From Botryllus schlosseri (taxonomy: Eukaryota), in assembly GCA_051294905.1 (NCBI GenBank), contig CM119372.1, positions 14,138,001 to 14,202,000 on the forward strand: a stretch of DNA of 64,000 bases, read 5' to 3'. Below, one piece after another: positions 36,401 through 61,882 of this stretch (the stretch's first letter is position 1; the number at the start of each line of letters is the position of its first letter). A program made the translations under genes and the position numbers. The notes under the pieces are model-generated. The model saw nothing but the letters and a program-made list of their open reading frames with translations. It was not told the DNA's origin and made no database searches.

Positions 36401-36552
36401 TACTGACACGTACCCCCGTTATAGGAAACGCGTTGCAGTATCATAACGGCGTGAAGTTTCCCAACACGGCCGGCGTTATAGCCGCGTGTTCGCAACACGA
36501 GTGGTTCATCAGCAAAGTGCCCCAGTCTGTGAAAGATGAGATGAAACCTTGA
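30411..36552 (+). CDS. BPNT1: 3'(2'),5'-bisphosphate nucleotidase 1 (PAP phosphatase, inositol monophosphatase superfamily), ~305 aa, 7 coding exons: 30411-30527, 30645-30851, 32103-32151, 32228-32331, 33789-33974, 36240-36366, 36425-36552
   Basis: Spliced translation [39 protein letters not shown] / QTEADR / IIGEED / [15 protein letters not shown] / VTVLIGIA / INQPFYNY / LGRTIWG / [11 protein letters not shown] / VGGAGNK / [22 protein letters not shown]; phases are consistent; all acceptors are AG; exon lengths sum to 918 nt including the stop. Confidence 0.95.
31312..31855. mobile_element. hAT-like MITE in BPNT1 intron 2 (AAGTAG-repeat family)
   Basis: Ends CAGAAGGGG / CCATCTCTG; perfect TSD GTGGTGAC; AAGTAG repeats as in 295-1548. 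Confidence 0.75.
32519..32610. repeat. Degenerate TAACCC-rich tract in BPNT1 intron 4
   Basis: About seven spaced TAACCC / CCTAACCC units; probably internal to a small repeat element. Confidence 0.6.
33241..33440 (+). pseudogene. Decayed hAT (Charlie-type) transposase fragment
   Basis: Translates [20 protein letters not shown], resembling the PFxSTYLCExGFS motif; nearby stops. Confidence 0.5.
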
Positions 36553-38628
36553 CTGACCAGCGTCTTATGATGTGTTCTCGTGCAGAATTTGTTTATTGCT
36601 CTACAATAAGAATAAGCTCTTGCGTTACATGAAATAATACTAGTAATCATGCATTTTACTGCTGCAATCCGCTAATTTTTGAGATTATTATACAATGAAT
36701 GCAAAATTTTTAACAATCGGGGCTGTACGTGTTTCCGTGCTCGACTTGTGGTGTGTTTATGAGCGCTCGTCATCAGGTGACTTCAATTACGAATTGGTGG
36801 GTTGTACATGACCGCGTGGGACGTCGTATGCAATGACATGCGGTGAGTTTCGTTGATGGTGAGGCACTGAACCCGCACTCGCACGTTTGGTGCATGATAA
36901 AGATACGCAAAGATGTGAAAAGGAATAGCAGCCAGCATGAGAAAGTGGTTAGGCGAGAGCATTTGAGATCCGAAAAAGTGGTCACTTGTCGGAAATTCTG
37001 AAAGCTCCGGTACTGGAAAAGGAAAAGTGTGATTTTGAAATTTGTCGACCGATAATAGTACTGTGTTGACTAAAATACGGTCATCACGTTGACCCGACTA
37101 CCGAATTACCCGCTATTTTACGATAATGTGAGGTGTTTACTAAAAAATAGGTCATCGCTTCGACTCCCGAATTACTTGTCGCGACGTATTTTTCGTTGAT
37201 TGTCTTGCCAACTCTGACTTCGCTGAGTCGGAGTCGAATTTTGATCGCATTTGAATACTAGAAAAAGAGGACAATAAATTACCAAAAATGAGGATATTAT
37301 TTAGGCGTCCTCCGAGGACACTTTCAATTTATTGCAAAAATAGGACATATGGTAACCCTATATAAAACCTAAAAGGTTAACTGATTGAGTTGGCGACCTG
37401 TTCCTTAATTATCACAGTATCCGTCTGGCTATCTATGCTCCTGATCCGCGGTAGCGGTGTCTTGCAAAAGCCTAGAAGTGGGCCGTGCTACAGGTCAGCA
37501 GATATGGAATGATAATGTAGGATATCGGCCAGCTGTAAATGGTCATTGCAGTCGAAAAACATCATAAGTGCCACAAACAACAACGCAGGCTATGTAGCTA
37601 AGCTAGCCAACATACAACAATTTAAGGTAGGGGAAATACGTACCAGCTACATAAATAAGAGTATGTATTTGCTGCGCATTACATACCAGTCGAAGCTCCA
37701 CGATTCATGCGACACTGAAATCGATAGCGCGTTTCACTGTGCTGCGATTTGTTGGCGAATAGTGAGTATGAGGCAAATTCATCAGCGCCTGGCTATAGTT
37801 ACTCTGAGCTGTCATTGTACATAATTTCACGGAATTTCATATTCCTTGGTGATTTTGAGTGGGTTCCTGCGCTCTGGGATTGTTAATATTTTTGGAATCT
37901 GTGCGACAATAGCATTTGATTGATACCAATTCGAGCTTTTTGTGATGAATTGCATTGTCGCAGGTGAGGCATGACCCGCCTGTGCCTCACCTCTCCTTTC
38001 GCGCTGTATTTTCGGACAATAAATATGGCAATTGGTGATTTTGGATGAAAAAATGTTCAATTTTAGTTTTCATGAACACAGACGGTAAATATCAGTAATC
38101 ATTGGAGGTTTTCATAATTTTCCTTAATTCATCCTGGCGACAAGGTGAGGCACTGCCTCACTTGCCTCCCCTGACCGCACGTCACTGCCTCGTATCCATG
38201 AATGTTCACTGTTGAATCGATTTATACTACGATAAATCGCACGGTTGCTGAATGAAGGCGCCCTCAGGGAAAAAAAATATCACCTGATCGAAACGTTAGT
38301 GATGTGACTAATTTGTGAGAGGGTGTCGTTTCGGTGCTCCCATTTGTCAGATATCTACATGTTGATTAGATCAGGGGTGTCAAACATACGGCCCGCCGGC
38401 AGCATCCGGCCTGCCAGAAGGTTTAATCCGTCCCGAGAAGTAATTCTGAGTAAATCGAAAAATTCCTATATTAGCACATTTCTAACAAAAGTTGAGATTT
38501 CAAGTAAACATACTTAGACGAAAATATAATCCCTCAAAGACAGCCAATATAGAACATTTTCATAGCATCGGTTGCATTATAAGCATCCGGATGCAGTTTT
38601 GAATTTTGAATCACCATTAGGTCACATT

Positions 38629-41243
38629 CAGGGCCGTAACAGCACTTCGTCAGACCCCCCCCCCCCCCCAACAAAAAAAAACGTCATTGGTCTTGGGCCC
38701 CCATATGATGATAACCGTACTTCTGGGGGTCTTCGCGCTTTACCGCTACTTATCATCTACATTGGGGTGCGTTTACTGAGTCCATTTATCTCGTCTAAAC
38801 GCGCGAAGCGCGAAAATTTTCTGTAATTCATGATGGAATCGGTCAATATGATCGGGAACTGCATTTATATTGCTAGCAATTTTTGTCCCCTCTCTGCTCA
38901 CGTAATCAAATTTACAGGTAGAGCTGATTGAGGTGTGTTTGAAAAGGTAGGACCCCTCAATAATAATTAAACATCTTCGGGCGTATACCCGTTGGCAGGA
39001 ACGAAACAGCACTTCGTCAGGCCCCCCCAAAAAAAACTTGGGTCTGGGGCTCCCATAGGGTGATAAACCTACCCCCAATCACGTTCGCTTTTGCCACGAA
39101 ATCAGTTGTACTGTTTAGTGAGCGAAGCGCGACAATCTTCGATAATTCATGATAAAATCGGTCAATAAGATCTGGAATTGCATATCAATTGCTATCAATT
39201 TCTTGTCCTCAGCTCTGCTCACGTAATCAGATTTTCCGGTAGAACTGAGCGAGCTGCCTTGGAAACTGTAGGGCCCGTTGGTATGACTCCGTAACATGCT
39301 GTTATTTCGAGATCTCCTGTCTGCTATATCAAAAATATAGAATCGCCCAAACGTGTGCTACTAAACCAAAAGACGCACCAGATTTTAAATTAGTATTTCT
39401 TCACTGGCCTCTAATTTTACCCTGCGGGATGATGTTTGTCGTGCGTGATTCAGATTGCCTGGACAGGAACATTCGGTGCCAGTCATTTAGGCACCTATGG
39501 ACACTTAAACCTATTATATGTATTTTGTATATTTATAACAATCAGGACCGTAACTGCCGCACCCCAAATCCCCCAATTGGGGGGGGCGAGCTCAAAGGGG
39601 GCCCAAAATTATTTCGTGAATTAGCATAAATTATAGAGTATTTTTTGAAAATTTATGCAGCTTTTTCAAAAAATTTTCGCGCTATCCGCGCGATTTCAAG
39701 TTCCCGAATATCTTCATTATTGTGTAGCCTACTCTTCACCCAAAATATACGCAAGATTTATAGAAATGAGCATATCGGCGTTGGCCATTACCGCGCCACG
39801 ACGCACCAAGATATAAAGTTTTAGGCAATGTAACATGCGACCCCAAGAGGTTTGCCAGAACGATCGCCAACGAGAAAACCTTGACCGAAAAGGACTGCGC
39901 TTATGCTGATACATATAGGTTTAATTGTCCATAGGCGCCTAAATAACTGGCGACAAATGTTCCTGTCTTGGCAATCTGAACCTCACAAGACAAATACCAT
40001 CTCGCACGAAAAAATTATATGCCGGTGAAGAAATACCAATTTGAAATCGTGTGCGTCTTTTAGTTTAGTACGTTTATGCGATTCTTCATTTTATGATATT
40101 GCTGAGGTCACGAAATAACATCATGTAACGAAGTCATACCAACGGGTCCGCCCGCTCGAAAATGTTTAATTATTATTTACGGGCCCTACAGTTTCCAAGA
40201 CACCTCAGTCAGCTCTACCGGTAAATCTGATTACGCGAGCAGAGAGGACCAGAAATTGATAGCAATATATATGCAATTCCCGATCTTATTGACCGATTTT
40301 ATTATGAATCATCGAAAATTTTCGCGCCTTGCGCGTGCTCACTAGAGAGTACAACTTATTTCGTGGTAAAAGCGACCAACGTGATGGGGGGGGGAGTCCG
40401 TTTATCACCCTATGGGAGCCTAAGAGCCAAGTTTTTCGGGGGGGGCTGACGAAGTGCTGTTTCGTTCCTGCCAACAGGCATACGCCCGGAGATGTTTAAT
40501 TATTATTATTATTGAGTGGTCCTACCTTTTCAAACACACCTCACTCCGCTCTACCGGTAAATCTGATTACGTGAGCAGAGAGAGGATAAAAATTGATAGC
40601 AATATATATGAAATTATCGATCATATTGACCGATTCAATCATGAATTATACAAATTTTTCGCGCTCCGCGCAGTTAGCCGTGAAAATCTCACTCAGTAAA
40701 CGGACACCCACTAAAGATGATAAGTATAGCGGTAAACTGCATGCGTATAGCCTGAGGGGGGTCTGGGGGGCGAAGCCCCCCATAAGTCCATTTTATAACC
40801 CTATGGGGGGCCCAAGGCCAACGTTTTGGGGGGGGGCTGACGAAGTGCTGTTACGGCCCTGATAACAATGTCTTCGGTCCGCATAAGGGCACAGTCCTTT
40901 TCGGCCAAGGTTTTCTCGCTGCCGATCGTTCTGGCACACTTCTTGGAGTCGCATGTTACATGGCCTAAAACTTTATATGTCTTGGTGCATCGTGGCGCGG
41001 TAATGGTCAACGCCGATATGCCGATTTCTATAAATCTTGCTTATTTTTTCTTGGGAGAAGAGTACCCCCAAATCAAGATATCTTGCAATCTGAAATCGCG
41101 CAGAGCGCGAAAAATTTTTGAAAAGTTGCATAAATTTTCAAAAAATACGCCATAATTTATGCTAATTCACGAAATAATTTGGGGCCTCCTTCGAGCTCGG
41201 CCCCCCCAATCGGGGGGTTTGGAGTGCGGCAGTTACGGTCCTG
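38629..41243. mobile_element. hAT-like element (CAGGGCCGTAAC / CAGGACCGTAAC family), outer copy
   Basis: Ends CAGGGCCGTAAC / GTTACGGTCCTG; perfect TSD GTCACATT. Confidence 0.88.
39543..40861. mobile_element. Same-family copy nested in opposite orientation
   Basis: Ends CAGGACCGTAAC / GTTACGGCCCTG; perfect TSD ATAACAAT. Confidence 0.9.
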
Positions 41244-41563: not shown

Positions 41564-42608
41564 TGCACCACTGGACTAAAATTACACTTGTGCGCGTGAA
41601 TCACAGCATGATATCAGTAATTTCGACTCTTCATTTTCGATCATCTCTACCTCTGCTCTGCAACCCTTGCCAATTCTTCATCTACCGCAATTCTGTAATC
41701 TGACCTCTTCATATATTGTATAGGAATAACAATTTGACTGTATTACTGAAATTTTAAAGATTTACTCCAATCTCGCCATTACCCTTTGGGGGCAGGTTGC
41801 TCCCCGGATTATGTGTGTATTTACCAGTTTTACTGTGAATAAAGAATATGAATAATTGCATCGTCCGTGTAGACAGTTAAATCTTTGTATTCCTCACAAC
41901 GAATACGCAGGCACAACTCCACATCACGACTAAAACGACGGGCATGGCATAGAAATATTCCAACTTTTATCGCATTCAATCGTCAATTCATCGTATTTTT
42001 GCAAAAACTACTGTTTGCGAGTAACGCCGTTGTTAGCATAGAGCAGTGGCTCCCAAAATGGGCGCCAGCGCCCCCCTGGGAGCGTTGGCGAGGGTGAATG
42101 GGGCCCTGGGCACGAAATGGGCGATGTGGGGGCGCTGGCTACGAATTGGGCGGTAGGGGGCGCTGAGGGGGAATGGGGGCGGGGGGGTTCAGAGGGCAAC
42201 TGATGAGTAGTGTCGAAACGATTAATGAATATAACAGCATAATATGCAGTAAAGAGTGCAAAATAGTTATTTCAAGGCAATGTATGGTCGATCCACAGGC
42301 GTCGATCTGTTTCAAGCAGCTGTACCAGAAAATTCCTCTGTTACTTGACAATATATATCCTTCCCCTCAATAGACCGATTCAGCAGTCGGCAGAATCACA
42401 AAAAGCGTGGTAGATTGTGTGGTGAGACTGAGAAGTGAGAACTACGATGTATTTGAACACTTACATTGCTGGACAGTTAGGTGCAATGGATTTAAGGAAA
42501 ACTGTCTTCCGCAATTTTAGTCTATGTTTCAAATCGTCGTGAAATTTTCACACTGATACGACCCAGTCCCACAATAGTTCTTATTGCGAGAAAATATATC
42601 GCTTATAA

Positions 42609-42940
42609 TAGGGCTACCATACGTCCTATTATTAAGAGGATTTGTCCTCCTTTTTTTGTCTTTTTTGAAAGTGGCCTCGGAGGACGCCCAAATGTCCTCT
42701 TTTTTGAGATTTTGTCCTCATTTTTGAGAATTTTGTTTAAATATAGGGTAAAATTCGAATGAGATACAGTAAATCAGCACTGAAGTAATGCTCCGGCGGC
42801 TATTTCGGAGCTGAGCCGGAAAGTTGACCTTTTTTTAGTTCACAAAGTCGGGGGAAATTTACAATTTTTCCCGGATTTTACTCCAGCATTGTTTTTGAAA
42901 AAGTGTCCTCTTTTTACATTTCCAAAATATGGTAACCCTA
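42609..42940. mobile_element. hAT-like MITE (TAGGGYTACCATA TIR)
   Basis: Ends TAGGGCTACCATA / TATGGTAACCCTA; perfect TSD GCTTATAA; GTCCTC subterminal repeats. Confidence 0.88.
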
Positions 42941-44036
42941 GCTTATAATTGACGGACGTCAAGTTTTATGAGTCGAATTTATCCTTTTTTGGTAATGATG
43001 AAACCTGATCAAGGTGAAAATATGGCACTGTCTGAATTCAGATTATAAGCAGAGGTGGTCAGTAACGAAGTACTTGTTCAAAGTACTCAAGTAGATTTCC
43101 TCTATTTCTGGTACATACTCAAGTAGGTCTTTTTTCGCTACTTTTACTTCGTATATTTTGTGAACTACTTACTTACTTTTCGCTATCTTCAGTTTGTCAA
43201 GTACAAGTAGTTTAATCCCCCAATAAGAAATATAGGCTAAGGAATTTTGGGGCTGTTGTCACGTAGTACCAAACCAACACATAATTTTCATAAAAGTCAT
43301 GTAATACGCAGAATTTTCGTTGCGCTTCGCGCACAGTAGATATGGAGTGACAAATATGTTTCAACCAAAGTATCGCTGAATATAATTTAGATACTGGGCG
43401 GCTGCGTGGTTCCGTTCACACCGCATTGTCGCCTGTATCAAATATTTCATCACAGTAAGTATGGTCCCCCATAACATTTGAAACTACAGTATCGCAATCT
43501 AGCAATTACCTATTATACCTAGCAGCCCATGACGTGTCCTAATCTGAAAAAGTGAACTTTGACTTTTAACGTTAGACCTGTTTTGGCAGACTACCGTTGA
43601 AACTAATTGAACAAAAGACATGAAATATCTTTTCCGCTTTTTAGAACTAGTATTCGTATTTTTCTTTCAATTTACGAGTATTATACGTTGAGTTCTAATT
43701 ATAGTTTCAGTTCTTTTGTCTGGAGAACATACATGTTGAAGTATAAAAGCAAGTGTAGTGATGCCGTATATTTTCCGAGAATAAAGCTATACACTATATG
43801 GGATTTTTACAATCTGTCATACTTTTAATTGACGTATACTAATCGTGCAAAGTGTTAAAGCCGTATCCGATACAACTTCTCTTCGGCTGAACTAGAGGCC
43901 GTATAATATGGGGGAGGGCGCCATGCCATGATATTCTCTAAAACGGGGTGTTCGAGTAAACAAAGAATTAGTATCGCATTTCCATATCAATCCCACGATG
44001 TTTACGACGGCTTATTCTGTCAAAAACTGACACCTC

Positions 44037-47000
44037 AGTAGTAGTATACGGGTCATTTATACCCCCACCAATAGTCATCGAGTATTTGATCACGTGACAT
44101 CTGTTAGCCAATTAGAATGCAGAACGAAGTGGGCGTGGTTCCAATACGAGAGAGGTTTGGGTTGTGCGAGAGATGGCATAGTTCCAGTCCAGTAACGCTG
44201 AGATATTTATTACGTCATGCTTGCGTAAGTTGATTACCTTCAATATGATTGCGTATTGCAGCATGTTCATGATTACGTCATATGCGTAGTTGATTACTTT
44301 AGTTATTTCGAGAGCGTCTTTGCTTAGTTCCAGTAATGCTGAGGTATGATTACGTCATGATTGCGTCTAGTTCCAGTCCAATAACACTGAGAAATATTTA
44401 CGTCATTATGATTGTGTAGTTGTTCATGTTCATGATTACGTCATATGCGTGGTTCCAATACGAGTGAGGTTTTGGTTGTGTGAGAGATGGCATAGTCCCA
44501 GTCCAGTAACGCTGAGATATTATTACGTCATTATTACGTAGGTTGATTACCTTCAATATGATTGCGTATTGCAGTTAAAGCATGTACAGTATTGATTACG
44601 TCATATGCGGAGTTGATTACTTTAGTTATTTCGAGAGCGTGATTGTTTAGTTCCAGTAATGCTGAGATATGATTACGTCATGATTGCGTCTAGTTCCAGT
44701 CCAATAACACTGAGAAATATTTACGTCATTATGATTGCGTATTGCAGTTGAAGCATGTTCAGTAATGATTACATCATATGCCTAGTTGATTACTTTAGCA
44801 ACGCTGAGATATGATTACGTCAATATTGCGTTGATTGCCTTTGTTATTGCAGTTGAAGCAAGTGCAAGGCAATATATAACGTGTAATATTTATTACATGA
44901 TTATTCGCTGTACGCTGTAGATTGAATATGTCAAAGATTACTGCTAATGATATATACGTCATAATAGATCGTATTGACCCGATGAACTGGTACATGATTT
45001 CAATGATTATTAAAAATAATTTTAATAATATTGTTTATGAATTCGTTTGAATACGTTCACTGTTATAATCTATATGATTTCAATGATTATTAAAAATAAT
45101 TGAAATAAATCTCACAAAGTAATAATATAAAATTTGGCTAATATTGTGAATATCTAATAATCGTGAAAATAGCAAGTATCTCATGTTGATGAAAAAAATC
45201 AGCCCACGTTGTTAGAGAACCAAAACATGATTTTAATATGTTTTAAATATTCCATTTTTTAAAAATATTATTACATTGGTTCTAACTTTGGAATAATAAT
45301 TATTATATTGTTTTCATTATTCATCGAAATCATTGTCGCTTATAACGGTGAACATCTTTTTAATAATATTGTTGCTTTGTAAATATCTTATTGATTTTAG
45401 TTAAATTATCGATTATCTTGTGTTGTTGATGAATTAGTTTGTACAAAAGACGTTCACTGTTATAATCTACATGATTTGAATTTTAATAAAACAATTTTCG
45501 GTTTATTCGCAATCATATGCTCATGTATGCGAAACTGGTATTGCTTTTACATCGCAAATCTAAAAAGGGATTCTAATATCGAGAAAATGTGCCAGGATCC
45601 CAAGGGAGCTCTATGCGTTGTTCTGAACGATTAGTAAATGTCGAGAAAGTATGTTAGGATCTCAAGGGAGCTCTACGCGTTGTTTTGTTGTGAATATGTT
45701 ATCATTGCGAAATTAGCAATTATTTCGTGTTGTTGATGAAAATATTAAGCTTACGTTGTTATAAGCACCAAAACATGATTTAAATATGTTTAAAATATTC
45801 CAGTTTTTAAATAATATTACTTTGGTTCTAACTTTGGAATAATAATAATTAATATTAATAATATTTTTTCAATATTCATTGAAGTCATTGTAGCTTATAA
45901 CGGTGAACATCTTTTGTACAGCAAGCTCCAAGTTTAATTAGAATTAGAGCAACACAAAATTCCAACACCTCGCAACTCTCATGACAGTGCATCGTATCAT
46001 TACACAATATTAAACTTCATTCAATAATCAACATTTAATTGTGACGTCATAAATTCGTATTTTGAATTTTTTGTGATGAGATGAGATTGTTTGATATGCA
46101 AGTCGCGCATGAAGCAGATCTGTCCACCCTGTACTATAGTAATGTGTTAAATGTGTACTCAAATGTATATTGTGAATAAGACCAGTTACGATCCAGCTAC
46201 CGTGTTTGTTAACCCATTGTGAAATGTCTGACGCCATATCTTCACCGTCACACTTATACTCAACGCGAACGCTATATTGTAGCTTAATTTCTTTATGTAG
46301 TACGTGCAAACATATGATGTGTCTCTCTCAATTTACTTTCAAAATTCATATGATACAACAGCATGGACTCTGAATGCCACTTGCAACATATGTATATGTA
46401 TTTGTATGATAATATTAGTAACAGCTGGCCTCTATAGGGAATTAACTGAATACATTCTTTGCCGATGGATAGTGTCGCAGTACCTTACCGTATGCACTAC
46501 AAAACGCTATCATTTTACAGTATTAATGAGACACAAACCAAAGTAAAATTAACAAAAAATTGACTAATATTATGAATATCTTATGATTTTGAGTTAAATT
46601 AGCCATTTTCTTGTGTTGTTATTGTTTCACTATCACTGATTATTCTAATAATATTGTTGCTTTGTGAATATCGTATCAATTTTTTGTTAAATTATCAATT
46701 ATCTTGTGTTGTTGATGAAAATAATTCGCTTGTATAAAATACGTTCACTAATATAATCTACAGGATTTCAATGATTATTAAAAAATAAGCTAATGCAAGT
46801 TTCCAGAATGCTGATGCTGGCTATGCTATTGGAGCCTTTTCAAATAGAATACGCAGTACGATTATCGATGGTGGATGCAAAACAATCCTAATTCTCAACA
46901 AATTTTAATTGTCTCGGAATCATACCTATTGCGATATCAACTCTCCGCATTTTGTTGTATTTAGGGCTATTGCACAAGCTATCTCTAATATGCTGCAATA

Positions 47001-50000
47001 TAGACAGGTTCAAACTTGTCTAGGGTATTCACTTCCCGTCAACTAGCTTTTCAAGACGCATTAATAAGCGCGCGTATTTAATTACCTAATCGTTGGATGA
47101 ATATTCCTGGCAGGCATAGATGTCCCCAGGGAACCGAGCTAACTTCGCTTCTATTCTTTTTACATTGTTTGCAAAGCACGGGTATTTTGTGATTCCATTA
47201 GACTTCAATGGTTCTAGAATACTAAATTAATGAGAGTTGAATAAACCGTCAATTAATTTAGCATAAAGCATATGATATTCATATTACTTAGAGCTTACGT
47301 CGTTGAACAACCCTGATATGATCATACAGCGAAAGTATAGCCCTAAATAGCGGTAATATCTCCCAAGCATAAAAATAACGTGGTCGGAATGTACGTTTAT
47401 TGCAAATTTATCTCTAAACAGAATGATCTGTAGCTTGTCGCATTCGAATTACTGAGCAGAATTGACATAGAACTATTAAGCAAAGCTGAAACATCTTCAC
47501 TTCAGTTATCATTCCCTTGAGACTACTAGTTATAGCAGAGGCAGACAAACTGTGATTTGCGGTTGTAGCACTTCAATGATTTCATGTGCGTTTCGCCATA
47601 TTGTTAAAGAAGTTTAACCTGATTATATATTAATGCATTTATAGCGTATTAGCAATATGCGAATGGTGGCTGTGGCGCTACAGGGTTCAAAATTAGCAAT
47701 TGAACTCTCGAATTGAACCCGATCATCAATCAATGACAAATCATTGTGCTCAACGCTATTTTTATGTGGTTCATTGATTCACAACTTTTACTGATCCACA
47801 AAGCACTTACGTTAGTCTTAAAACCTTCGCTGAACCACAAATTTTCGCTGAGTCATAAAACAAAAAATCTGGCAAAATATACATTCAACTACACATCTAA
47901 TTCTTTACTATAGTACAGGAGTGGGCAGAGCTGCTTCTTGCGCGAGTCGCATATCAAAAATCTTATCTTTAAAAGAACCACAACACAAAAATCCAACATA
48001 TGGATTTATTACGTCTCAAGGAAATGTAGGCTATCGAATGAAATTTATTATTGTGTGATGATAGGATGTGCAATTGTGCATACACGAGGGTTCTAATTCC
48101 AATCTAATTTGGAAAAACTATGTAGCTCTAAGTCAAATTCTAATCTAGTTCTATTCAACCTGTTTCAGTTACACACGCTTTTCAGAGACACTGCGAGCTT
48201 CACGGATTTTTAAATTTTCAAAATTAGGATTGATCGATAAATATGATACTATTTATCACTTGTATAAATATCACTGTGATATCAATCCAAGCTTATGCGG
48301 CTTTGTAATAATTGGTTGTTTAGCAAAATCAATATTATGCTCAAATTATATCAGATATCGCATTGAATATAGCTAATCAAATTTTTATTACATATTAGTA
48401 GCTGCAGTCGGATTTCAACATAACGACCAATTCCGATGCACATGCTACGTTTTCGAAACGACTACGTTACTATTCGATAGCTGGACATATCAGTATTGTC
48501 TTCTAATGACTCGAGTCATTACAATCCTGCTAATGGATTTCTAATTTAAACTTTGACTTGGACTTATCGATCAAGTAGGTAGTGGGGGTACCTGGTTTTG
48601 TTACCAGCCTCGAGGCTATATTCTTTGGCAGCGATGAGGCTATTTATGTTCATCGCTCAGCACTTGACTATGGCGATGTGTATTTAGCACTGTGTATTGA
48701 TAATTACTTGCTTCCGAGAAATAAATAACATTCATTATACGTTAGATGATACTTTCCACAGATATTCTATTATGTGTCTTGAGACTACAGCGAGTTGATA
48801 ATATTAATGCGTACACTTTCAAGAAATAAGGACGTTGCTAACATTCAGATTTTGCGTAAATTTCGCGTGATCAACTATGTACGATTTTTGTGTATTTCAG
48901 ACTATGTATGTTCATGTTCACGAAGACTGCGGTATCGCATGGATAAATGCATCATCGCTAATAAATTACTTGAATGCGACTCGATAACATTTATCCCTTG
49001 TAACGTACTCAAACATGATATTAGGTGTATTTAAGACTATTTATGTTCCTGAGATCTTTGATAGCGCAATGATTCGGTATGATTTCTATATTATTCCACT
49101 CTCGTTATTGGACTGCGGTGTGACGCTGAACCTATCTCGATGCCCGGGCTTCCGCATTAACTTTTTTCGATTTCTTCTGCCTTATGTAGATTTAACATAA
49201 GGAAAGTTATTTCACTCATAAAATTTGAAATACGTATTTGCTCGAGTTAAAGCCATAACGCTTGGAGTGAAATTTTACGAGGTTTTCGTTAATATTCAAC
49301 TGGGCTAATTTCGAAATGTAAATTGAAAAACTCAAATATCGCATAGTAGGACTTCGCAAATTTTCGATATATTTTTGCTATTTTTTCATGGTGACAAGTC
49401 ATTCGGAACGGTGAAATGCATTATAGGAAATAGATGAAACTGGTTCAATTCATCAAGACCCCTGAAAAAAGTACATTGGATTTCAACATTTTATTAGCAG
49501 GTAATCGAAATACCACAAACTGGGCTAACCTTCGGAGTTGTTAAGTAAAGAAGTACTCGTACTTCTTCGGAGTACCCAATACTCTCAAGTCCTTATTATA
49601 TTGGAGTGTTTCAACTTCATGATAGTTATAGTATTAAGCAGAAATATACCTGGAGTACTAATGTTTTACTTACTAGGAAATGACTACTTCTGTCTTATTT
49701 TAAAGGATTCCTCGCTCGACGCGAAATTTTATTAGGTTTTGAATAATATCCAACATGTAGGTTCACTTTGAAGGGTACTTCGTAAAACTCAAATATTGTA
49801 CAGTGAGAGCTCGCAAATTCTCGATGTATTTTTTGGTATTTTTATTGCGGTAAGTCATTCTGCAGCGCGAAAATGCATCGTAGGATATAGATGAAACTGA
49901 CACCGCTCACCAAGACCACTGGACCACTGAAAAAGTACATTTCAACATTTTAGTAGCAGTAAATTCCTAGTAAAGTATAAGAAGTGATGATTTCCGAGTG

Positions 50001-53000
50001 AGTTAAAAAGTAAGTATTGAAGGTATAGTTTGGTCGAAAACCGAAAACTCTGAAATAGAAGTAGATGCAGTGTAAAAAGTTAATCACTTGATTAAGTATA
50101 GCGCAAGCGGACCAAACCTATACTTGAGTACTCCAAAATGTACAAGTACTTCGCTATGGACTCCCTCCACGTAAAAAGTGACTAGGTTTTAGACTACTTT
50201 ATCGGTACTTGACAGTTTCAGTTTTAGATAAAATTTGGAATAAAAACTAGCTCATTCACTCACTTGGAAATCTCTTCTTTAACCTGTACTTGAGCGTAGC
50301 AAGTAAATCTCATTTATTATTAATTCTACACGTACACTTGACCATATTTTATGACTTACATAATTACTTTTCACTATATTTGAAGTCAAGTCTGTCAAAT
50401 AGCAGTATATGTTACGATGAGCTTATATTCGTTCTGTTTGATCATCTTGACTAACGATATTCACGCGGCGAGCTCTCCAGTGATAGCCTTGGGACTTGGA
50501 ACAGTGTTATATGACATCATAGCGACACGAGGTTACGACAGTTTAGAATTAGCTACCTTACGACACCAAATTTCGTTAGTTCATCTCCACCTTCAAATAT
50601 TGTGTTATACAAATATAGTGTATACGCAACAAATACATATATGGCTTTGTTGCTGCAATCTTCAAAAAAAGTACTTCCCTCAGTAAGCAATTTCTCGTAG
50701 GCTATGCATATGCATACAAACGAGGACAGTTACATCAATGAGTGGTACCTTGTTGTATTAAGTAGCTAGTAATTAGTGCATGTAAGTCCGCAGCTACTGT
50801 TCAAGACCTTTTACGCGTTTTTGCCAAGCATCCTCGTAAGGACAGACAGTCCCAATCAGCTAATGTAAGTGTGTGTGTGTAGGCCTATGTATGTATGAGG
50901 GGTCTTATGCCGGTTGACGAATGAAGTTGGTCGTCTATTCTATTCCGAAATAATCAAGTTAGTGGTTTTTAACAGGACCTGACCTCATAGAAACTTCAGT
51001 AGAATAACTTATAACTCCTCATGTTTACTCAAGTAAATCTAATTTGATAATCATGTACTGAATCTTAATTTTCAAACGAGTTCAAATTTAACTCTAACTT
51101 ATGAGATTAAATATAATAACTTTTCACGTTGCAGCGTATTTTACAGCATGAGCCAAGTGATTTCATAATTAACACAAGATAATTAAATGAATTTCTAGAG
51201 GATTATAAGATATTCGTGTCATCCTCCTTCGTATATCATAAAAGAATACCTACTGCAGTCGATTTGTAATTATTTGCGCTGTGTTTGATCAACTCAATCA
51301 TGTTGCAGTGTTTTAATAACGAAACTCTTTTACAGCATAAACCAAATAATTTCATAATAAACACAAGCTAATTGAATGAATTTACTCAAATGTAGTATAC
51401 CGCGCTGATGAGATTAATTATAACATACTTATCATGTTACAGTGGTTTTTCAATAACTAAACTCATTTACAGCATAAGCAGAGTAATTTCATAATAAACA
51501 TAAAATAACTGCTGTCGATGATTTGTACTAATTTGTGGCGTGTACAATTAACTCAAGCAGCTCTAAAACATAGGAAGCAGGGCGATGGGTATTCGTTGAG
51601 TTGAATAAATATAAAAAATATTTCCGCGCCCTTCTAGGTTGTAGGGTTAGGAATAATTAGGTTTAGTAGGGCGCGGAAATATTTTTTATGTTTATTCAAC
51701 TCAACGAATACCCATCGCCCTGCTTCCTATGTTTTAGAGCTGCTTGAGTTAATTGTACACGCCACAAATTAGTACAAATCATCGACAGCAGTTATTTTAT
51801 GTTTATTATGAAATTACTCTGCTTATGCTGTAAATGAGTTTAGTTATTGAAAAACCACTGTAACATGATAAGTATGTTATAATTAATCTCATCAGCGCGG
51901 TATACTACATTTGAGTAAATTCATTCAATTAGCTTGTGTTTATTATGAAATTATTTGGTTTATGCTGTAAAAGAGTTTCGTTATTAAAACACTGCAACAT
52001 GATTGAGTTGATCAAACACAGCGCAAATAATTACAAATCGACTGCAGTAGGTATTCTTTTATGATATACGAAGGAGGATGACACGAATATCTTATAATCC
52101 TCTAGAAATTCATTTAATTATCTTGTGTTAATTATGAAATCACTTGGCTCATGCTGTAAAATACGCTGCAACGTGAAAAGTTATTATATTTAATCTCATA
52201 AGTTAGAGTTAAATTTGAACTCGTTTGAAAATTAAGATTCAGTACATGATTATCAAATTAGATTTACTTGAGTAAACATGAGGAGTTATAAGTTATTCTA
52301 CTGAAGTTTCTATGAGGTCAGGTCCTGTTAAAAACCACTAACTTGATTATTTCGGAATAGAATAGACGACCAACTTCATTCGTCAACCGGCATAAGACCC
52401 CTCATACATACATAGGCCTACACACACACACTTACATTAGCTGATTGGGACTGTCTGTCCTTACGAGGATGCTTGGCAAAAACGCGTAAAAGGTCTTGAA
52501 CAGTAGCTGCGGACTTACATGCACTAATTACTAGCTACTTAATACAACAAGGTACCACTCATTGATGTAACTGTCCTCGTTTGTATGCATATGCATAGCC
52601 TACGAGAAATTGCTTACTGAGGGAAGTACTTTTTTTGAAGATTGCAGCAACAAAGCCATATATGTATTTGTTGCGTATACACTATATTTGTATAACACAA
52701 TATTTGAAGGTGGAGATGAACTAACGAAATTTGGTGTCGTAAGGTAGCTAATTCTAAACTGTCGTAACCTCGTGTCGCTATGATGTCATATAACACTGTT
52801 CCAAGTCCCAAGGCTATCACTGGAGAGCTCGCCGCGTGAATATCGTTAGTCAAGATGATCAAACAGAACGAATATAAGCTCATCGTAACATATACTGCTA
52901 TTTGACAGACTTGACTTCAAATATAGTGAAAAGTAATTATGTAAGTCATAAAATATGGTCAAGTGTACGTGTAGAATTAATAATAAATGAGATTTACTTG

Positions 53001-56000
53001 CTACGCTCAAGTACAGGTTAAAGAAGAGATTTCCAAGTGAGTGAATGAGCTAGTTTTTATTCCAAATTTTATCTAAAACTGAAACTGTCAAGTACCGATA
53101 AAGTAGTCTAAAACCTAGTCACTTTTTACGTGGAGGGAGTCCATAGCGAAGTACTTGTACATTTTGGAGTACTCAAGTATAGGTTTGGTCCGCTTGCGCT
53201 ATACTTAATCAAGTGATTAACTTTTTACACTGCATCTACTTCTATTTCAGAGTTTTCGGTTTTCGACCAAACTATACCTTCAATACTTACTTTTTAACTC
53301 ACTCGGAAATCATCACTTCTTATACTTTACTAGGAATTTACTGCTACTAAAATGTTGAAATGTACTTTTTCAGTGGTCCAGTGGTCTTGGTGAGCGGTGT
53401 CAGTTTCATCTATATCCTACGATGCATTTTCGCGCTGCAGAATGACTTACCGCAATAAAAATACCAAAAAATACATCGAGAATTTGCGAGCTCTCACTGT
53501 ACAATATTTGAGTTTTACGAAGTACCCTTCAAAGTGAACCTACATGTTGGATATTATTCAAAACCTAATAAAATTTCGCGTCGAGCGAGGAATCCTTTAA
53601 AATAAGACAGAAGTAGTCATTTCCTAGTAAGTAAAACATTAGTACTCCAGGTATATTTCTGCTTAATACTATAACTATCATGAAGTTGAAACACTCCAAT
53701 ATAATAAGGACTTGAGAGTATTGGGTACTCCGAAGAAGTACGAGTACTTCTTTACTTAACAACTCCGAAGGTTAGCCCAGTTTGTGGTATTTCGATTACC
53801 TGCTAATAAAATGTTGAAATCCAATGTACTTTTTTCAGGGGTCTTGATGAATTGAACCAGTTTCATCTATTTCCTATAATGCATTTCACCGTTCCGAATG
53901 ACTTGTCACCATGAAAAAATAGCAAAAATATATCGAAAATTTGCGAAGTCCTACTATGCGATATTTGAGTTTTTCAATTTACATTTCGAAATTAGCCCAG
54001 TTGAATATTAACGAAAACCTCGTAAAATTTCACTCCAAGCGTTATGGCTTTAACTCGAGCAAATACGTATTTCAAATTTTATGAGTGAAATAACTTTCCT
54101 TATGTTAAATCTACATAAGGCAGAAGAAATCGAAAAAAGTTAATGCGGAAGCCCGGGCATCGAGATAGGTTCAGCGTCACACCGCAGTCCAATAACGAGA
54201 GTGGAATAATATAGAAATCATACCGAATCATTGCGCTATCAAAGATCTCAGGAACATAAATAGTCTTAAATACACCTAATATCATGTTTGAGTACGTTAC
54301 AAGGGATAAATGTTATCGAGTCGCATTCAAGTAATTTATTAGCGATGATGCATTTATCCATGCGATACCGCAGTCTTCGTGAACATGAACATACATAGTC
54401 TGAAATACACAAAAATCGTACATAGTTGATCACGCGAAATTTACGCAAAATCTGAATGTTAGCAACGTCCTTATTTCTTGAAAGTGTACGCATTAATATT
54501 ATCAACTCGCTGTAGTCTCAAGACACATAATAGAATATCTGTGGAAAGTATCATCTAACGTATAATGAATGTTATTTATTTCTCGGAAGCAAGTAATTAT
54601 CAATACACAGTGCTAAATACACATCGCCATAGTCAAGTGCTGAGCGATGAACATAAATAGCCTCATCGCTGCCAAAGAATATAGCCTCGAGGCTGGTAAC
54701 AAAACCAGGTACCCCCACTACCTACTTGATCGATAAGTCCAAGTCAAAGTTTAAATTAGAAATCCATTAGCAGGATTGTAATGACTCGAGTCATTAGAAG
54801 ACAATACTGATATGTCCAGCTATCGAATAGTAACGTAGTCGTTTCGAAAACGTAGCATGTGCATCGGAATTGGTCGTTATGTTGAAATCCGACTGCAGCT
54901 ACTAATATGTAATAAAAATTTGATTAGCTATATTCAATGCGATATCTGATATAATTTGAGCATAATATTGATTTTGCTAAACAACCAATTATTACAAAGC
55001 CGCATAAGCTTGGATTGATATCACAGTGATATTTATACAAGTGATAAATAGTATCATATTTATCGATCAATCCTAATTTTGAAAATTTAAAAATCCGTGA
55101 AGCTCGCAGTGTCTCTGAAAAGCGTGTGTAACTGAAACAGGTTGAATAGAACTAGATTAGAATTTGACTTAGAGCTACATAGTTTTTCCAAATTAGATTG
55201 GAATTAGAACCCTCGTGTATGCACAATTGCACATCCTATCATCACACAATAATAAATTTCATTCGATAGCCTACATTTCCTTGAGACGTAATAAATCCAT
55301 ATGTTGGATTTTTGTGTTGTGGTTCTTTTAAAGATAAGATTTTTGATATGCGACTCGCGCAAGAAGCAGCTCTGCCCACTCCTGTACTATAGTAAAGAAT
55401 TAGATGTGTAGTTGAATGTATATTTTGCCAGATTTTTTGTTTTATGACTCAGCGAAAATTTGTGGTTCAGCGAAGGTTTTAAGACTAACGTAAGTGCTTT
55501 GTGGATCAGTAAAAGTTGTGAATCAATGAACCACATAAAAATAGCGTTGAGCACAATGATTTGTCATTGATTGATGATCGGGTTCAATTCGAGAGTTCAA
55601 TTGCTAATTTTGAACCCTGTAGCGCCACAGCCACCATTCGCATATTGCTAATACGCTATAAATGCATTAATATATAATCAGGTTAAACTTCTTTAACAAT
55701 ATGGCGAAACGCACATGAAATCATTGAAGTGCTACAACCGCAAATCACAGTTTGTCTGCCTCTGCTATAACTAGTAGTCTCAAGGGAATGATAACTGAAG
55801 TGAAGATGTTTCAGCTTTGCTTAATAGTTCTATGTCAATTCTGCTCAGTAATTCGAATGCGACAAGCTACAGATCATTCTGTTTAGAGATAAATTTGCAA
55901 TAAACGTACATTCCGACCACGTTATTTTTATGCTTGGGAGATATTACCGCTATTTAGGGCTATACTTTCGCTGTATGATCATATCAGGGTTGTTCAACGA

Positions 56001-59000
56001 CGTAAGCTCTAAGTAATATGAATATCATATGCTTTATGCTAAATTAATTGACGGTTTATTCAACTCTCATTAATTTAGTATTCTAGAACCATTGAAGTCT
56101 AATGGAATCACAAAATACCCGTGCTTTGCAAACAATGTAAAAAGAATAGAAGCGAAGTTAGCTCGGTTCCCTGGGGACATCTATGCCTGCCAGGAATATT
56201 CATCCAACGATTAGGTAATTAAATACGCGCGCTTATTAATGCGTCTTGAAAAGCTAGTTGACGGGAAGTGAATACCCTAGACAAGTTTGAACCTGTCTAT
56301 ATTGCAGCATATTAGAGATAGCTTGTGCAATAGCCCTAAATACAACAAAATGCGGAGAGTTGATATCGCAATAGGTATGATTCCGAGACAATTAAAATTT
56401 GTTGAGAATTAGGATTGTTTTGCATCCACCATCGATAATCGTACTGCGTATTCTATTTGAAAAGGCTCCAATAGCATAGCCAGCATCAGCATTCTGGAAA
56501 CTAGCATTAGCTTATTTTTTAATAATCATTGAAATCCTGTAGATTATATTAGTGAACGTATTTTATACAAGCGAATTATTTTCATCAACAACACAAGATA
56601 ATTGATAATTTAACAAAAAATTGATACGATATTCACAAAGCAACAATATTATTAGAATAATCAGTGATAGTGAAACAATAACAACAGAAGAAAATGGCTA
56701 ATTTAACTCAAAATCATAAGATATTCATAATATTAGTCAATTTTTTGTTAATTTTACTTTGGTTTGTGTCTCATTAATACTGTAAAATGATAGCGTTTTG
56801 TAGTGCATACGGTAAGGTACTGCGACACTATCCATCGGCAAAGAATGTATTCAGTTAATTCCCTATAGAGGCCAGCTGTTACTAATATTATCATACAAAT
56901 ACATATACATATGTTGCAAGTGGCATTCAGAGTCCATGCTGTTGTATCATATGAATTTTGAAAGTAAATTGAGAGAGACACATCATATGTTTGCACGTAC
57001 TACATAAAGAAATTAAGCTACAATATAGCGTTCGCGTTGAGTATAAGTGTGACGGTGAAGATATGGCGTCAGACATTTCACAATGGGTTAACAAACACGG
57101 TAGCTGGATCGTAACTGGTCTTATTCACAATATACATTTGAGTACACATTTAACACATTACTATAGTACAGGGTGGACAGATCTGCTTCATGCGCGACTT
57201 GCATATCAAACAATCTCATCTCATCACAAAAAATTCAAAATACGAATTTATGACGTCACAATTAAATGTTGATTATTGAATGAAGTTTAATATTGTGTAA
57301 TGATACGATGCACTGTCATGAGAGTTGCGAGGTGTTGGAATTTTGTGTTGCTCTAATTCTAATTAAACTTGGAGCTTGCTGTACAAAAGATGTTCACCGT
57401 TATAAGCTACAATGACTTCAATGAATATTGAAAAAATATTATTAATATTAATTATTATTATTCCAAAGTTAGAACCAAAGTAATATTATTTAAAAACTGG
57501 AATATTTTAAACATATTTAAATCATGTTTTGGTGCTTATAACAACGTAAGCTTAATATTTTCATCAACAACACGAAATAATTGCTAATTTCGCAATGATA
57601 ACATATTCACAACAAAACAACGCGTAGAGCTCCCTTGAGATCCTAACATACTTTCTCGACATTTACTAATCGTTCAGAACAACGCATAGAGCTCCCTTGG
57701 GATCCTGGCACATTTTCTCGATATTAGAATCCCTTTTTAGATTTGCGATGTAAAAGCAATACCAGTTTCGCATACATGAGTATATGATTGCGAATAAACC
57801 GAAAATTGTTTTATTAAAATTGAAATCATGTAGATTATAACAGTGAACGTCTTTTGTACAAACTAATTCATCAACAACACAAGATAATCGATAATTTAAC
57901 TAAAATCAATAAGATATTTACAAAGCAACAATATTATTAAAAAGATGTTCACCGTTATAAGCGACAATGATTTCGATGAATAATGAAAACAATATAATAA
58001 TTATTATTCCAAAGTTAGAACCAATGTAATAATATTTTTAAAAAATGGAATATTTAAAACATATTAAAATCATGTTTTGGTTCTCTAACAACGTGGGCTG
58101 ATTTTTTTCATCAACATGAGATACTTGCTATTTTCACGATTATTAGATATTCACAATATTAGCCAAATTTTATATTATTACTTTGTGAGATTTATTTCAA
58201 TTATTTTTAATAATCATTGAAATCATATAGATTATAACAGTGAACGTATTCAAACGAATTCATAAACAATATTATTAAAATTATTTTTAATAATCATTGA
58301 AATCATGTACCAGTTCATCGGGTCAATACGATCTATTATGACGTATATATCATTAGCAGTAATCTTTGACATATTCAATCTACAGCGTACAGCGAATAAT
58401 CATGTAATAAATATTACACGTTATATATTGCCTTGCACTTGCTTCAACTGCAATAACAAAGGCAATCAACGCAATATTGACGTAATCATATCTCAGCGTT
58501 ACTAAAGTAATCAACTAGGCATATGATGTAATCATTACTGAACATGCTTCAACTGCAATACGCAATCATAATGACGTAAATATTTCTCAGTGTTATTGGA
58601 CTGGAACTAGACGCAATCATGACGTAATCATATCTCAGCATTACTGGAACTAAACAATCACGCTCTCGAAATAACTAAAGTAATCAACTCCGCATATGAC
58701 GTAATCAATACTGTACATGCTTTAACTGCAATACGCAATCATATTGAAGGTAATCAACCTACGTATTAATGACGTAATAATATCTCAGCGTTACTGGACT
58801 GGGACTATGCCATCTCTCACACAACCAAAACCTCTCTCGTATTGGAACCACGCATATGACGTAATCATGAACATGAACAACTACACAATCATAATGACGT
58901 AAATATTTCTCAGTGTTATTGGACTGGAACTAGACGCAATCATGACGTAATCATACCTCGGCATTACTGGAACTAAGCAAAGACGCTCTCGAAATAACTA

Positions 59001-59263
59001 AAGTAATCAACTACGCATATGACGTAATCATGAACATGCTGCAATACGCAATCATATTGAAGGTAATCAACTTACGCAAGCATGACGTAATAAATATCTC
59101 AGCGTTACTGGACTGGAACTATGCCATCTCTCGCACAACCCAAACCTCTCTCGTATTGGAACCACGCCCACTTCGTTCTGCATTCTAATTGGCTAACAGA
59201 TGTCACGTGATCAAATACTCGATGACTATTGGTGGGGGTATAAATGACCCGTATACTACTACT
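44037..59263. mobile_element. 15,227-bp fully palindromic non-coding element with Polinton/Maverick-like termini
   Basis: Position i pairs with 103300-i from the termini to the centre; arms 44037-51632 and 51668-59263; termini AGTAGTAGTATACGGG / CCCGTATACTACTACT; perfect 6-bp TSD CACCTC (44031-44036, 59264-59269); mirrored short ORFs in the ORF track; no ORF over ~93 aa. Confidence 0.85.
44134..44880 (+). repeat. Subterminal tandem array (~314-bp period) built from TTACGTCA-containing subunits; mirrored at ~58420-59166
   Basis: CGTGGTTCCAATACGAG at 44134 and 44448; ten TTACGTCA octamers counted. Confidence 0.85.
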
Positions 59264-59304
59264 CACCTCCTTGGATGAAGTAATATGAATCAAGCTCTCT
59301 ACAC

Positions 59305-60802
59305 CAGCGGTTCTCAACCGGGGGTCCGCTGACCCCTAGGGGTCCGCGAAGCAATTTCAGGGGGTCCGCGAGACCTCTAAATTTTTTAAATGGTTGATAA
59401 CCTAATTTTTATTTTATTTTTTATTTTGAGAAAGCATGAGGCAGTTTCGCACCACAACTGCTAAAATCTCATGACTCATATCATCATCATAATCGTCTGA
59501 CATGAGCTATCGTTGCGTGGAAATTCATTTTCATTGCTCATTTTCCAATAACCTGCTGATACAAACATATTGCTGTTTAGAGACGTTTTGTTGGGGTTTG
59601 GGGATAAAATAAAAATATGGAGATAGTAACGTCAATAAGGGTGACGTCGTTAATGTCTGCAAAACCTTCTCGATTTGAAGTTGTCTTGTCAGTCTCATCA
59701 AATTAGTGAACATGAACAGTCGTTTGAAATGAAGATCTCCGAAATGTTTCCCTAATTTTTCCCAATGCAGGGATTGAAGCCTCGCCACGCGAAATCCATT
59801 TTATCCTGTGATATACCGCATAACCACTATTGGAACAGTTTATTGGAGTTACAGAACTTGAATATACAATTGAAAAGTATATACATATTGAAATGACAAG
59901 GCTATCGACGGCTGACACTCGTCATAAATCGGACAATGATATACCTGCTCTTAAAGCTCGGCTATTAGTCAGATTTGGCGCATTCTTATCGCGGATGCCC
60001 TATCGACAAGGCTGTTTTTTTAGGAACAAGGAGTGTTTCGTTGCTATCAAAGCATTACGCTCCAGCCCTGAAATTCATATCACCAGTTATATTGGTATGC
60101 AGCCTTGTTTTGTTAATGTTCAATTGTTCATGGTCGAAAATGTTTGCTGGTCAATATATATGTAAACCCGAACAGAACAAGTTGTTTCATAACAGGCTTT
60201 CTAAGGTTAGAAAACTTGAATCCATTCTTTGGCGAATGAAACTTGTCTATGCTTTTAGATTAGGATTTCACTTTGACGGTAGAAACTCTCTGCGGGCCGA
60301 TCAAAATGCCGTCGCGGACCGAATCCGGCCAGCGGTTCGTATGTTGCCCGTCCTTACGGTAGATGCTGGGCGTGATATGTTCATAAAATATATGTTTCCT
60401 CATTTTGGTGCCATAAATGTTGCGATTACACCAAAAGTATCATCGGAAGCGTTATGCGTTAATATTGAATTAGCCGCCATCTATATTTGTGGAAATGGTT
60501 TTTGGCACTACTCGTTCATATCAAAACGAAGACGAGGATTTCCAAGACACGACCACGTACTTCAAGAAATACATAAGCAAAATTAGCTTCGAAATAATAA
60601 AAGTCTACCAATTTCTACATAGATAGTATGATGTTATTTTCAAGAAAAATCATTTATTTTGCTGTTTCTCACAAGCCTCGAGTTCATATTTGCACAAAAC
60701 AGATGAAGGTTGCACCATAATTGAACTAAAACTTGAGGGGGTCCGCGAGGGTCCGTGACGGTCATAAGGGGTCCGCGAAGCCAAAAAGGTTGAGAACCAC
60801 TG
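59305..60802. mobile_element. hAT (Charlie-like) non-autonomous element with transposase debris
   Basis: TIRs CAGCGGTTCTCAACC / GGTTGAGAACCACTG; perfect TSD CTCTACAC; GGGGTCCGCG subterminal repeats; minus-strand remnants YHRIKWISRG (~59790) and LVLFGFTYI..QTFSTMN (~60150). Confidence 0.9.
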
Positions 60803-61882
60803 CTCTACACCTTCCGCATAGCTCCATTTGCAGCTTTTTATAGTTCATGCGAACGAATTACGATCGTTTTCACAACTACTTACTTACTTGAGTAGATTTT
60901 AAGTCAGTCAATTCTACTTCTACTTCAAGTAGTTTTAGGTTGCTTATGAAATAAGTACTTCTACTTGTACTTGAGTAGATTTTTTCATCGCTACTTCTAC
61001 TTCTACTTGAGTAGCTTTCTTGACTACTTTGACCACCTCTGGTAATAAGCTCATGATAGATCAGAGAGATTTGCTAAGACGTGTTCTTTTCCAATTCTCA
61101 AGCTTGCCTGGGCTTGATAGCAGTCCTGCTCGGCGCTCGCATAGGCATAGGCTATATAATTTTGACGTATAAGCATACAGCAATCATCTCGAAAAACTGC
61201 ACATGGATAGTGGATACATGGTAATTTGATTTCAGGATATTCTCCAATCAGAAGTTCGTTACTGGATAATCAGTCCATTCCGTGAAATTTCCAAGCATGA
61301 AATGATTAAAGAGTCATGTATATTGCAGAACCATTTTGCGCTCACGCCAAAGCTCAATATCTGTTACTATCAATCGTTCTGGATGGACAATTGGAAATAT
61401 ATAGAAAAACTCCCCATGGAGTTGGGTTGATTTTTTCCTCATTGCCCCTCCCGGTTTATATTTATTAGAAAGCACTTTCAGTGCCGTGACAAGTGTGGCA
61501 ATGCAGTTTTCAAATACACACTTGTCTTCCTGATCTATGAAGAGAAATGAACTGCCGTGGACTTGACATTCACAATTACAAATTACAAACAACGCCTTAG
61601 CTATCCACGTTCTTGATTAGGAAGTAGTTTTGTAGTATCACTGTCAAAATGTATAGGCGTGTAGCGCAACGTTGTGTTACCGACGAAGAGGCCAACATTG
61701 AGAATTGAGAAGTCGTTCAGTCATCCTGGCGACAGGTGAGGCACTGCCTCACTTGCCTCCCCTGACCCCACGTTACTGTCGCATCACACCTTACGGTGGG
61801 TAAGTACTGCTGTAATGACTATGTTTAGGAGCTTAGCTCCACCTACACCTCGGCTCCTCGCATTTAAAAAGAGCATCAAGAC

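Follow-up and report, generated by a model that had tools for sequence, protein, structure and literature searches.

Protein-primed linear replicons can give rise to palindromic molecules that replicate through a hairpin, much as is proposed below for a chromosomal element. Symmetrical adenovirus minichromosomes with hairpin replication intermediates were reportedly described by Hu et al. in 1992, and a hairpin plasmid of yeast by Kikuchi et al. in 1985. To our knowledge, these are laboratory or plasmid derivatives that have no integrase step, are not endogenous and have no germ-line spread shown. Virus-like Maverick/Polinton elements, which Kapitonov and Jurka are said to have treated in 2006, are the other point of reference. 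In the sections available of the survey by Barreat and Katzourakis (2021, PMC8097293), vertebrate Mavericks were called by (AGT)2//(ACT)2 or (AG)3//(CT)3 ends together with a perfect 6-bp duplication, and intact copies measured 12,723-24,620 bp with terminal repeats of 46-1,447 bp; the corresponding passages of Jeong et al. (2023, PMC10748475) give 13-25 kb, 100-1,500-bp repeats and 5-8-bp duplications. Here we describe a palindrome in the genome of Botryllus schlosseri, located in 64,000 nucleotides of contig CM119372.1 (assembly GCA_051294905.1, positions 14,138,001 to 14,202,000 of the forward strand), hereafter the window, to which all coordinates and strands refer. We consider it probable that the palindrome is a non-autonomous, helper-dependent Maverick/Polinton derivative of fold-back form, integrated as a single unit of 15.2 kb.

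Self-comparison of the window identified positions 44037-59263 as a single long inverted match, gap-free over 15,227 bp. The left arm (44037-51636, +), which is non-coding, aligns without gaps to the right arm (51664-59263, -); both are 7,600 bp long and they differ at 10 pairs, all of them substitutions with zero indels, corresponding to an arm identity of 99.87%. Between them lies a TAGG-rich loop of 27 nt (51637-51663), with arm mismatches at 51610 and 51633, within 27 bases of it. The inverted repeat covers 99.8% of the palindrome, which is wholly self-complementary from one end, as a snap-back genome is. The left terminus reads AGTAGTAGT (44037-44045, +), the Maverick (AGT)n end motif, and the right arm finishes with ACTACTACT, giving (AGT)3...(ACT)3 ends. 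Outside the palindrome (48.8 kb), the + strand has 17 occurrences of AGTAGT (~3.5e-4 per position), which makes it unlikely that the end motif is present by chance. The copies of CACCTC that flank the palindrome have the 6-bp length of a Maverick/Polinton duplication, and 15,227 bp falls inside the intact Maverick range of 12,723-24,620 bp. The ordinary Maverick structure, in which terminal repeats of ~50-1,500 bp surround a unique interior, is not found here, the palindrome consisting of its 7,600-bp arms and 27-nt loop. TAGG density in the window is highest in the loop, with a comparable cluster near ~32550; the degenerate CCCTAA-like (telomere-like) cluster at ~32520-32620 is intronic and of the same motif class. 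The loop is at most a candidate telomere-like or quadruplex signal.

No genes were found in the arms. The longest stop-free frame of the left arm encodes 100 aa, compared with a shuffled median of 96, and 39% of 200 shuffles contained a frame as long. A Pfam search of the arm frames of at least 40 aa gave no match at E 0.01 (0/62). A gene for a protein-primed polymerase, retroviral-like integrase, capsid, packaging ATPase or protease was not detected by these frame and Pfam searches, which do not exclude spliced or very short genes. Likewise, no Rfam family was found in the arm in a search of 43000-52000, where the lone match lay within the surrounding host element, far below its gathering score, and was rejected, and the left arm had no match among phage records. 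Judged from its sequence, the palindrome has the ends of a Polinton without being an autonomous one. What it shares with the Mavericks described in the accessible text of PMC8097293 are ends of the (AGT)2//(ACT)2 type, a perfect 6-bp duplication and a length within 12.7-24.6 kb, whereas it differs from them in the absence of polymerase, integrase, ATPase, protease and capsid genes and in arms of 7,600 bp rather than terminal repeats of 46-1,447 bp. The ends suggest that the palindrome borrows copying and insertion enzymes from virus-like Maverick/Polinton elements.

The mode of arrival of the palindrome can be read from an empty site within the window. The left (44031-44036, +) and right (59264-59269, +) target-site duplications directly abut the arms; among duplication lengths of 2-11 bp, 6 alone matches, and the probability of any 6-bp duplication at this fixed junction by chance is 3.2e-4. 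The palindrome interrupts a non-autonomous element of 1.25 kb, with CAGAGGTGGTCA ends and an 8-bp duplication, which is hAT-like by the criteria of an 8-bp duplication and a short CAG-type terminal repeat. An uninterrupted paralogue of this host lies at 295-1548 (+), bounded by the terminal inverted repeat CAGAGGTGGTCA and an 8-bp duplication matching at 7/8 positions, and carries one target hexamer, TACCTC, at 1277-1282 (+), as the first-pass annotation had stated; both sequences that it quoted around the insertion point are present as written. In the occupied copy, the left part of the host (43050-44036, +) is identical to the paralogue in 783 of 915 aligned columns, the host resumes in register for 35 bp after the right duplication (59270-59304, +; identical in 26 of 34 aligned columns to paralogue positions 1283-1316), and the right part, which includes the terminal repeat (60811-61041, +), is identical in 215 of 228. 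The host is itself flanked by ATTATAAG and GTAATAAG (43042-43049 and 61042-61049), which match at 6/8 positions, as previously noted.

Removal of both inserts from 43050-61041, the comparison that the first-pass annotation had proposed, allowed end-to-end alignment with the paralogue (1025/1177 columns identical, 87%, the joined sequence carrying one extra base of the second insert). The alignment score was best with one copy of the hexamer (48, compared with 30 for none and 36 for two), so that it is not already doubled in the sole uninterrupted member available, and across the 11 resume offsets from 0 to 10 the score was maximal at 6. In addition, a comparison with every 35-mer of the window (127,930, both strands) gave no match to the paralogue's continuation other than the paralogue and the 35 bases that follow the right duplication. 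The single hexamer of the paralogue and the return of host sequence exactly 6 bases past the right end show that one integration, with a 6-bp duplication, placed both outer ends of the palindrome. This empty site is a single paralogue, 87% identical, rather than an empty allele of the palindrome locus, and it fixes the two ends rather than the interior; a full palindrome at the time of insertion is not established by it. The earlier claim that the palindrome was inserted as one unit therefore holds for the placement of both ends in a single event and not for a palindromic interior at insertion.

A second hAT-like insert of 1,498 bp (59305-60802) sits 35 bases from the palindrome, inside the same host element. 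Its terminal bases are inverted at 15/16 positions, it is flanked by the perfect 8-bp duplication CTCTACAC (59297-59304 and 60803-60810), and its 205-aa frame matches no Pfam family. The palindrome, with its 6-bp duplication and AGT ends, does not resemble these two neighbouring hAT-like elements, which have 8-bp duplications and CAG ends. The nesting order, together with the 99.87% identity of the arms, argues that the insertion is young and is better evidence than the perfection of the target-site duplication. The youth proposed at first is thus upheld, while the argument originally given for it is weak: a perfect 6-bp duplication would stay perfect with a probability of 0.74 at 5% divergence and 0.43 at 13%.

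A subterminal block of the left arm (44068-44963, +), with a 323-bp tandem duplication, carries 11 ACGTCA (CRE/ATF-like) and six CCAAT motifs, together with a CACGTG and a GC-box-like motif that each occur once; the block is a possible origin or promoter region. Beyond the first 0.9 kb of the arm, AT-rich modular repeats extend to ~46.8 kb. The ~2.1-kb segment at 45991-48067, bounded by imperfect inverted repeats of ~190 bp (77%), is possibly an old nested element; its 4-bp flank duplication was at chance level for the search made. Further inward, scattered decayed pieces of the host hAT-like family (49539-51045) are 64-76% identical to it and are the same in both arms, with no arm-to-arm difference over 49529-50423; contig depth is raised at 49776-50423 in all four sequencing runs compared below. 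That such old debris shows no difference between the arms means that it had been captured long before one arm served as the template for the other.

The mismatches between the arms are unevenly distributed, with eight confined to the outer 2,761 bp and two to the 27 bp beside the loop, while the 4,812 bp between these stretches are free of them. For statistics chosen after seeing the data, a mismatch-free stretch of this size has P ~5e-4 if 10 points are placed uniformly, and two of 10 mismatches falling in the last 27 bp has P ~6e-4. We read this clustering as a sign that the inner arm was recently re-copied from the other arm. The internal repeats allowed five of the 10 mismatches to be polarised, the derived base being in the right arm for three and in the left arm for two. 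None of these derived bases is present in the corresponding internal repeats, and conversion from such repeats is unsupported as a source of the mismatches in the five that could be polarised. The two mismatches on the loop side are possibly remnants of a short imperfect inverted repeat that primed fold-back.

Arm sequence is not confined to this assembly. Of the 20 sequencing runs listed, 15, which came from 10 studies, contained some part of 42000-51600, and the contigs of four runs (X1, X5, X10 and X13, of which X1 may be the source sample) were compared over 42000-51710, that is, the left flank and left arm. Close arm pieces in X5 (276 and 214 bp, both without differences), X10 (381 bp with two differences) and X13 (390 bp with one and 343 bp with none) show 0-2 differences over 212-390 bp, and a 2,093-bp contig of X10, also nearly identical, has 14 differences to the arm. 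Diverged variants occur beside these: X5 has 15 differences at 50745-50960. Near-identical and diverged arm variants were present in 4/4 runs, with no second insertion junction among the contig matches listed. In X1, more than 90% of the summed contig depth has another letter at 44113, 44128, 44159 and 44344, a sign that this palindrome belongs to a larger family in which its own variant is in the minority; at 44113, for example, total contig depth is ~7,400 as against 154-183 for the three listed contigs with 0-1 differences, values that do not represent copy number. X5, X10 and X13 show the other letter alone at 44344, and X10 covers almost none of 42000-42647; in both cases contigs show presence, not absence.

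X5, X10 and X13 carry three other organism labels, and their arm pieces are 99-100% identical to this non-coding element; they may represent closely related species, different labels for a single species or mixed samples. Contigs of X1 skip or replace arm segments 47180-48136 and 47058-47112, indicating deletion variants of the arm in the family. A contig joint between 50190 and 51680 was dropped as support for the loop, since a link between 51590-51620 and a high-copy repeat explains it better; in X10 and X13 its depths equal those of the 50237/49878 joint.

How such an element might propagate can be sketched from the Polinton model, in which, as outlined in the portion available of 10.64898/2026.07.28.741278, a single strand is excised, its terminal repeats anneal, a protein-primed polymerase replicates it and integration generates a new duplication. 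By this model, an excised or displaced single strand of the palindrome would pair with itself to give a duplex of 7.6 kb with the 27-nt loop at its closed end. The terminal motif suggests that the palindrome end serves as an origin of replication, and the open end of the folded duplex would then constitute one complete origin. From there, the protein-primed polymerase of a putative helper would copy round the loop to yield a 15.2-kb duplex with two identical ends, the substrate for an integrase, and insertion would be catalysed in trans by the retroviral-like integrase of an autonomous Polinton; a packaging limit set by the helper may constrain the length. Each displaced strand would snap back, re-form the origin and be able to start again, and the palindromic shape would be favoured because every displaced strand re-forms an origin. 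The arms would be stuffer, composed of internal repeats and captured host-transposon debris and re-equalised whenever one arm templates the other, and the centre probably goes back to captured DNA in which a short imperfect inverted repeat primed fold-back. Loops longer than 12 nt are described as poorer Mre11 substrates in the text available of PMC10622511, and the 27-nt loop may help the palindrome to persist.

Several observations weigh against a helper-dependent fold-back Polinton. No helper was seen, and the patterns of the palindrome end and centre had no relatives in viral or metagenome contigs: the exact terminal 24-mer gave 0 matches in viral contigs, and the terminal and centre 23-mers gave 0 and 0 in metagenome contigs. 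Six viral-contig matches to the terminal 16-mer were at chance level, sharing 12-23 of 64 bases beyond the seed, and were rejected. Among the contig matches listed, there was no second insertion junction, empty allele or secure loop-spanning contig, nor any contig with a loose end at the left boundary (44036/44037), and the mismatch-free inner 4.8 kb could result from assembly consensus building. Finally, fold-back in yeast corrected the mismatches in the seeding inverted repeat, according to the part of PMC10622511 available, which counts against a retained seed at the centre.

One alternative is a single insertion of an element with Polinton ends, its terminal repeats being ordinary or 2.8 kb long, which became fully palindromic, or was homogenised, in place. 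This could have happened through a central break followed by fold-back copying of one arm and annealing back at the far end, or through gene conversion between the arms. Arm-to-arm conversion has reportedly been seen in mammalian palindromes (10.1101/800185), and an empty site that fixes the ends and not the interior leaves room for such an origin. Eight mismatches in the first 2,761 bp followed by none in the next 4,812 would also suit the joining of a newer inner copy to an older outer repeat, and chromosomes are known to undergo fold-back at short inverted repeats, according to the passages available of PMC10622511. Nevertheless, we consider an origin in place unlikely, as it calls for an uncommon repair event in an insertion that is still very young, its arms being 99.87% alike, and the derived bases, three right and two left and absent from the internal repeats, fit point mutation in an element that already had two arms. 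It is improbable that the junctions are real while the interior is partly a product of assembly, through merging of the arms in the consensus or replacement of a different centre by a mirror copy. Long palindromes are hard to sequence, the loop is not among the contig matches listed and the inner 4.8 kb is free of mismatches; yet 10 substitutions without indels are unlike typical long-read error, none of the sequencing-adapter words considered occurs at the centre, both junctions restore one target site, and arm sequence occurs in runs of three further studies.

A giant foldback-type element moved by cut-and-paste with another transposase, its AGT ends being coincidental or convergent, strikes us as improbable to at least the same degree. 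The modular internal repeats of the outer arm and the lack of an identified helper would suit it, and foldback elements with long modular inverted repeats are known (mentioned in PMC6431247). However, end motif, duplication length and total length all fit Mavericks together, both hAT-like elements at the site differ in the duplications and ends described above, and cut-and-paste alone would not re-equalise the arms. The smallest chance, a very slight one, is left to a breakage-fusion-bridge palindrome, a chimera from read fold-back or a pair of independent insertions placed head to head. Such products are typically near-perfect palindromes with a short loop. A fold-back inversion or breakage-fusion-bridge event is recognised by a lost or inverted flank and no target duplication, whereas the flanks of this palindrome are not inverted and the host is in register after exactly 6 duplicated bases. 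The first-pass annotation had argued that neither a chimera nor a breakage-fusion-bridge event would let the host resume in the correct orientation, and the alignment, offset and 35-mer results, which place it in register, bear this out. Two head-to-head insertions are further opposed by a centre without an ACTACT end or a second duplication.

A non-autonomous fold-back Polinton has partial counterparts among other described systems. Like the palindrome, the snap-back subgenomes of AAV described in PMC8235507 mirror one end, depend on a helper and form a duplex on folding; in contrast, they keep parts of viral promoters and genes, have parvovirus hairpin ends, measure a few kb and are not integrated families, whereas the palindrome is 15 kb long, gene-less and chromosomal. 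Foldback elements and miniature inverted-repeat transposable elements (MITEs) share with it a non-autonomous nature, long inverted repeats, modular subterminal repeats and a flanking duplication (see PMC6431247), but the palindrome is much longer and has nearly no spacer, Polinton ends and a 6-bp duplication. Hairpin-based replication has also been proposed for Polinton-related integrated elements, namely the endogenous virophages and polinton-like viruses of Halocafeteria with terminal palindromes; in the portion available of that report (10.64898/2026.07.28.741278), the palindromes are ~52 nt and lie at the ends of gene-bearing genomes, whereas here the whole element is palindromic and the hairpin central.

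By titles and the openings of abstracts, no wholly palindromic Polinton derivative was found in the literature, although subscription papers, Repbase reports and supplements may list such elements. A term search for "palindrom" in the available text of PMC8097293, PMC10748475, PMC5499653 and PMC6431247 gave no occurrence, and the one paper found to mention a non-autonomous Polinton or Maverick does so in a passage on Tlr1. Among the papers searched, we found no earlier case in which two forms known separately, the non-autonomous transposon and the snap-back genome, are combined in an integrated element with Polinton ends. More tentatively, and with somewhat less than even confidence, we propose that the palindrome represents an undescribed class of endogenous, gene-less, helper-sized snap-back satellites of polintoviruses, which would replicate as hairpins from one origin, renew their symmetry at each round and use the helper's integrase and possibly its capsid.

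Elsewhere in the window, a LINE at 13480-18014 (+) has two open frames; the one of 413 aa carries a CCHC knuckle, and the one of 1,116 aa contains an endonuclease and a reverse-transcriptase domain. A spliced gene of the inositol-monophosphatase family lies at ~30630-36560 (+), with a Pfam match just under the cut-off and exons at ~30.6, 32.1, 32.3, 33.8, 36.3 and 36.45 kb that were located by motif; it resembles BPNT1. Since this gene ends ~7.5 kb before the palindrome, the palindrome is not in its introns. Diverged inverted-repeat elements cluster at 38628-41243 and 25849-27123, with partial copies elsewhere in the window.

Near-perfect palindromes of 15 kb with a spacer as short as 27 nt are usually regarded as unstable, and here an animal genome carries one. 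Assembly filters could discard such palindromes as artefacts, and the empty site in the window provides a clean control against that. The exit of Polintons from the chromosome, their replication and their re-integration have hitherto been modelled from sequence alone. An element without genes, in which nothing but the ends, a length like that of the helper and a self-complementary body is retained, would delimit what is needed in cis. The palindrome is the product predicted by the model of a single strand with annealed ends, and it makes that model testable by observation of hairpin or dimer forms, arm-mismatch patterns and polymorphic insertions.

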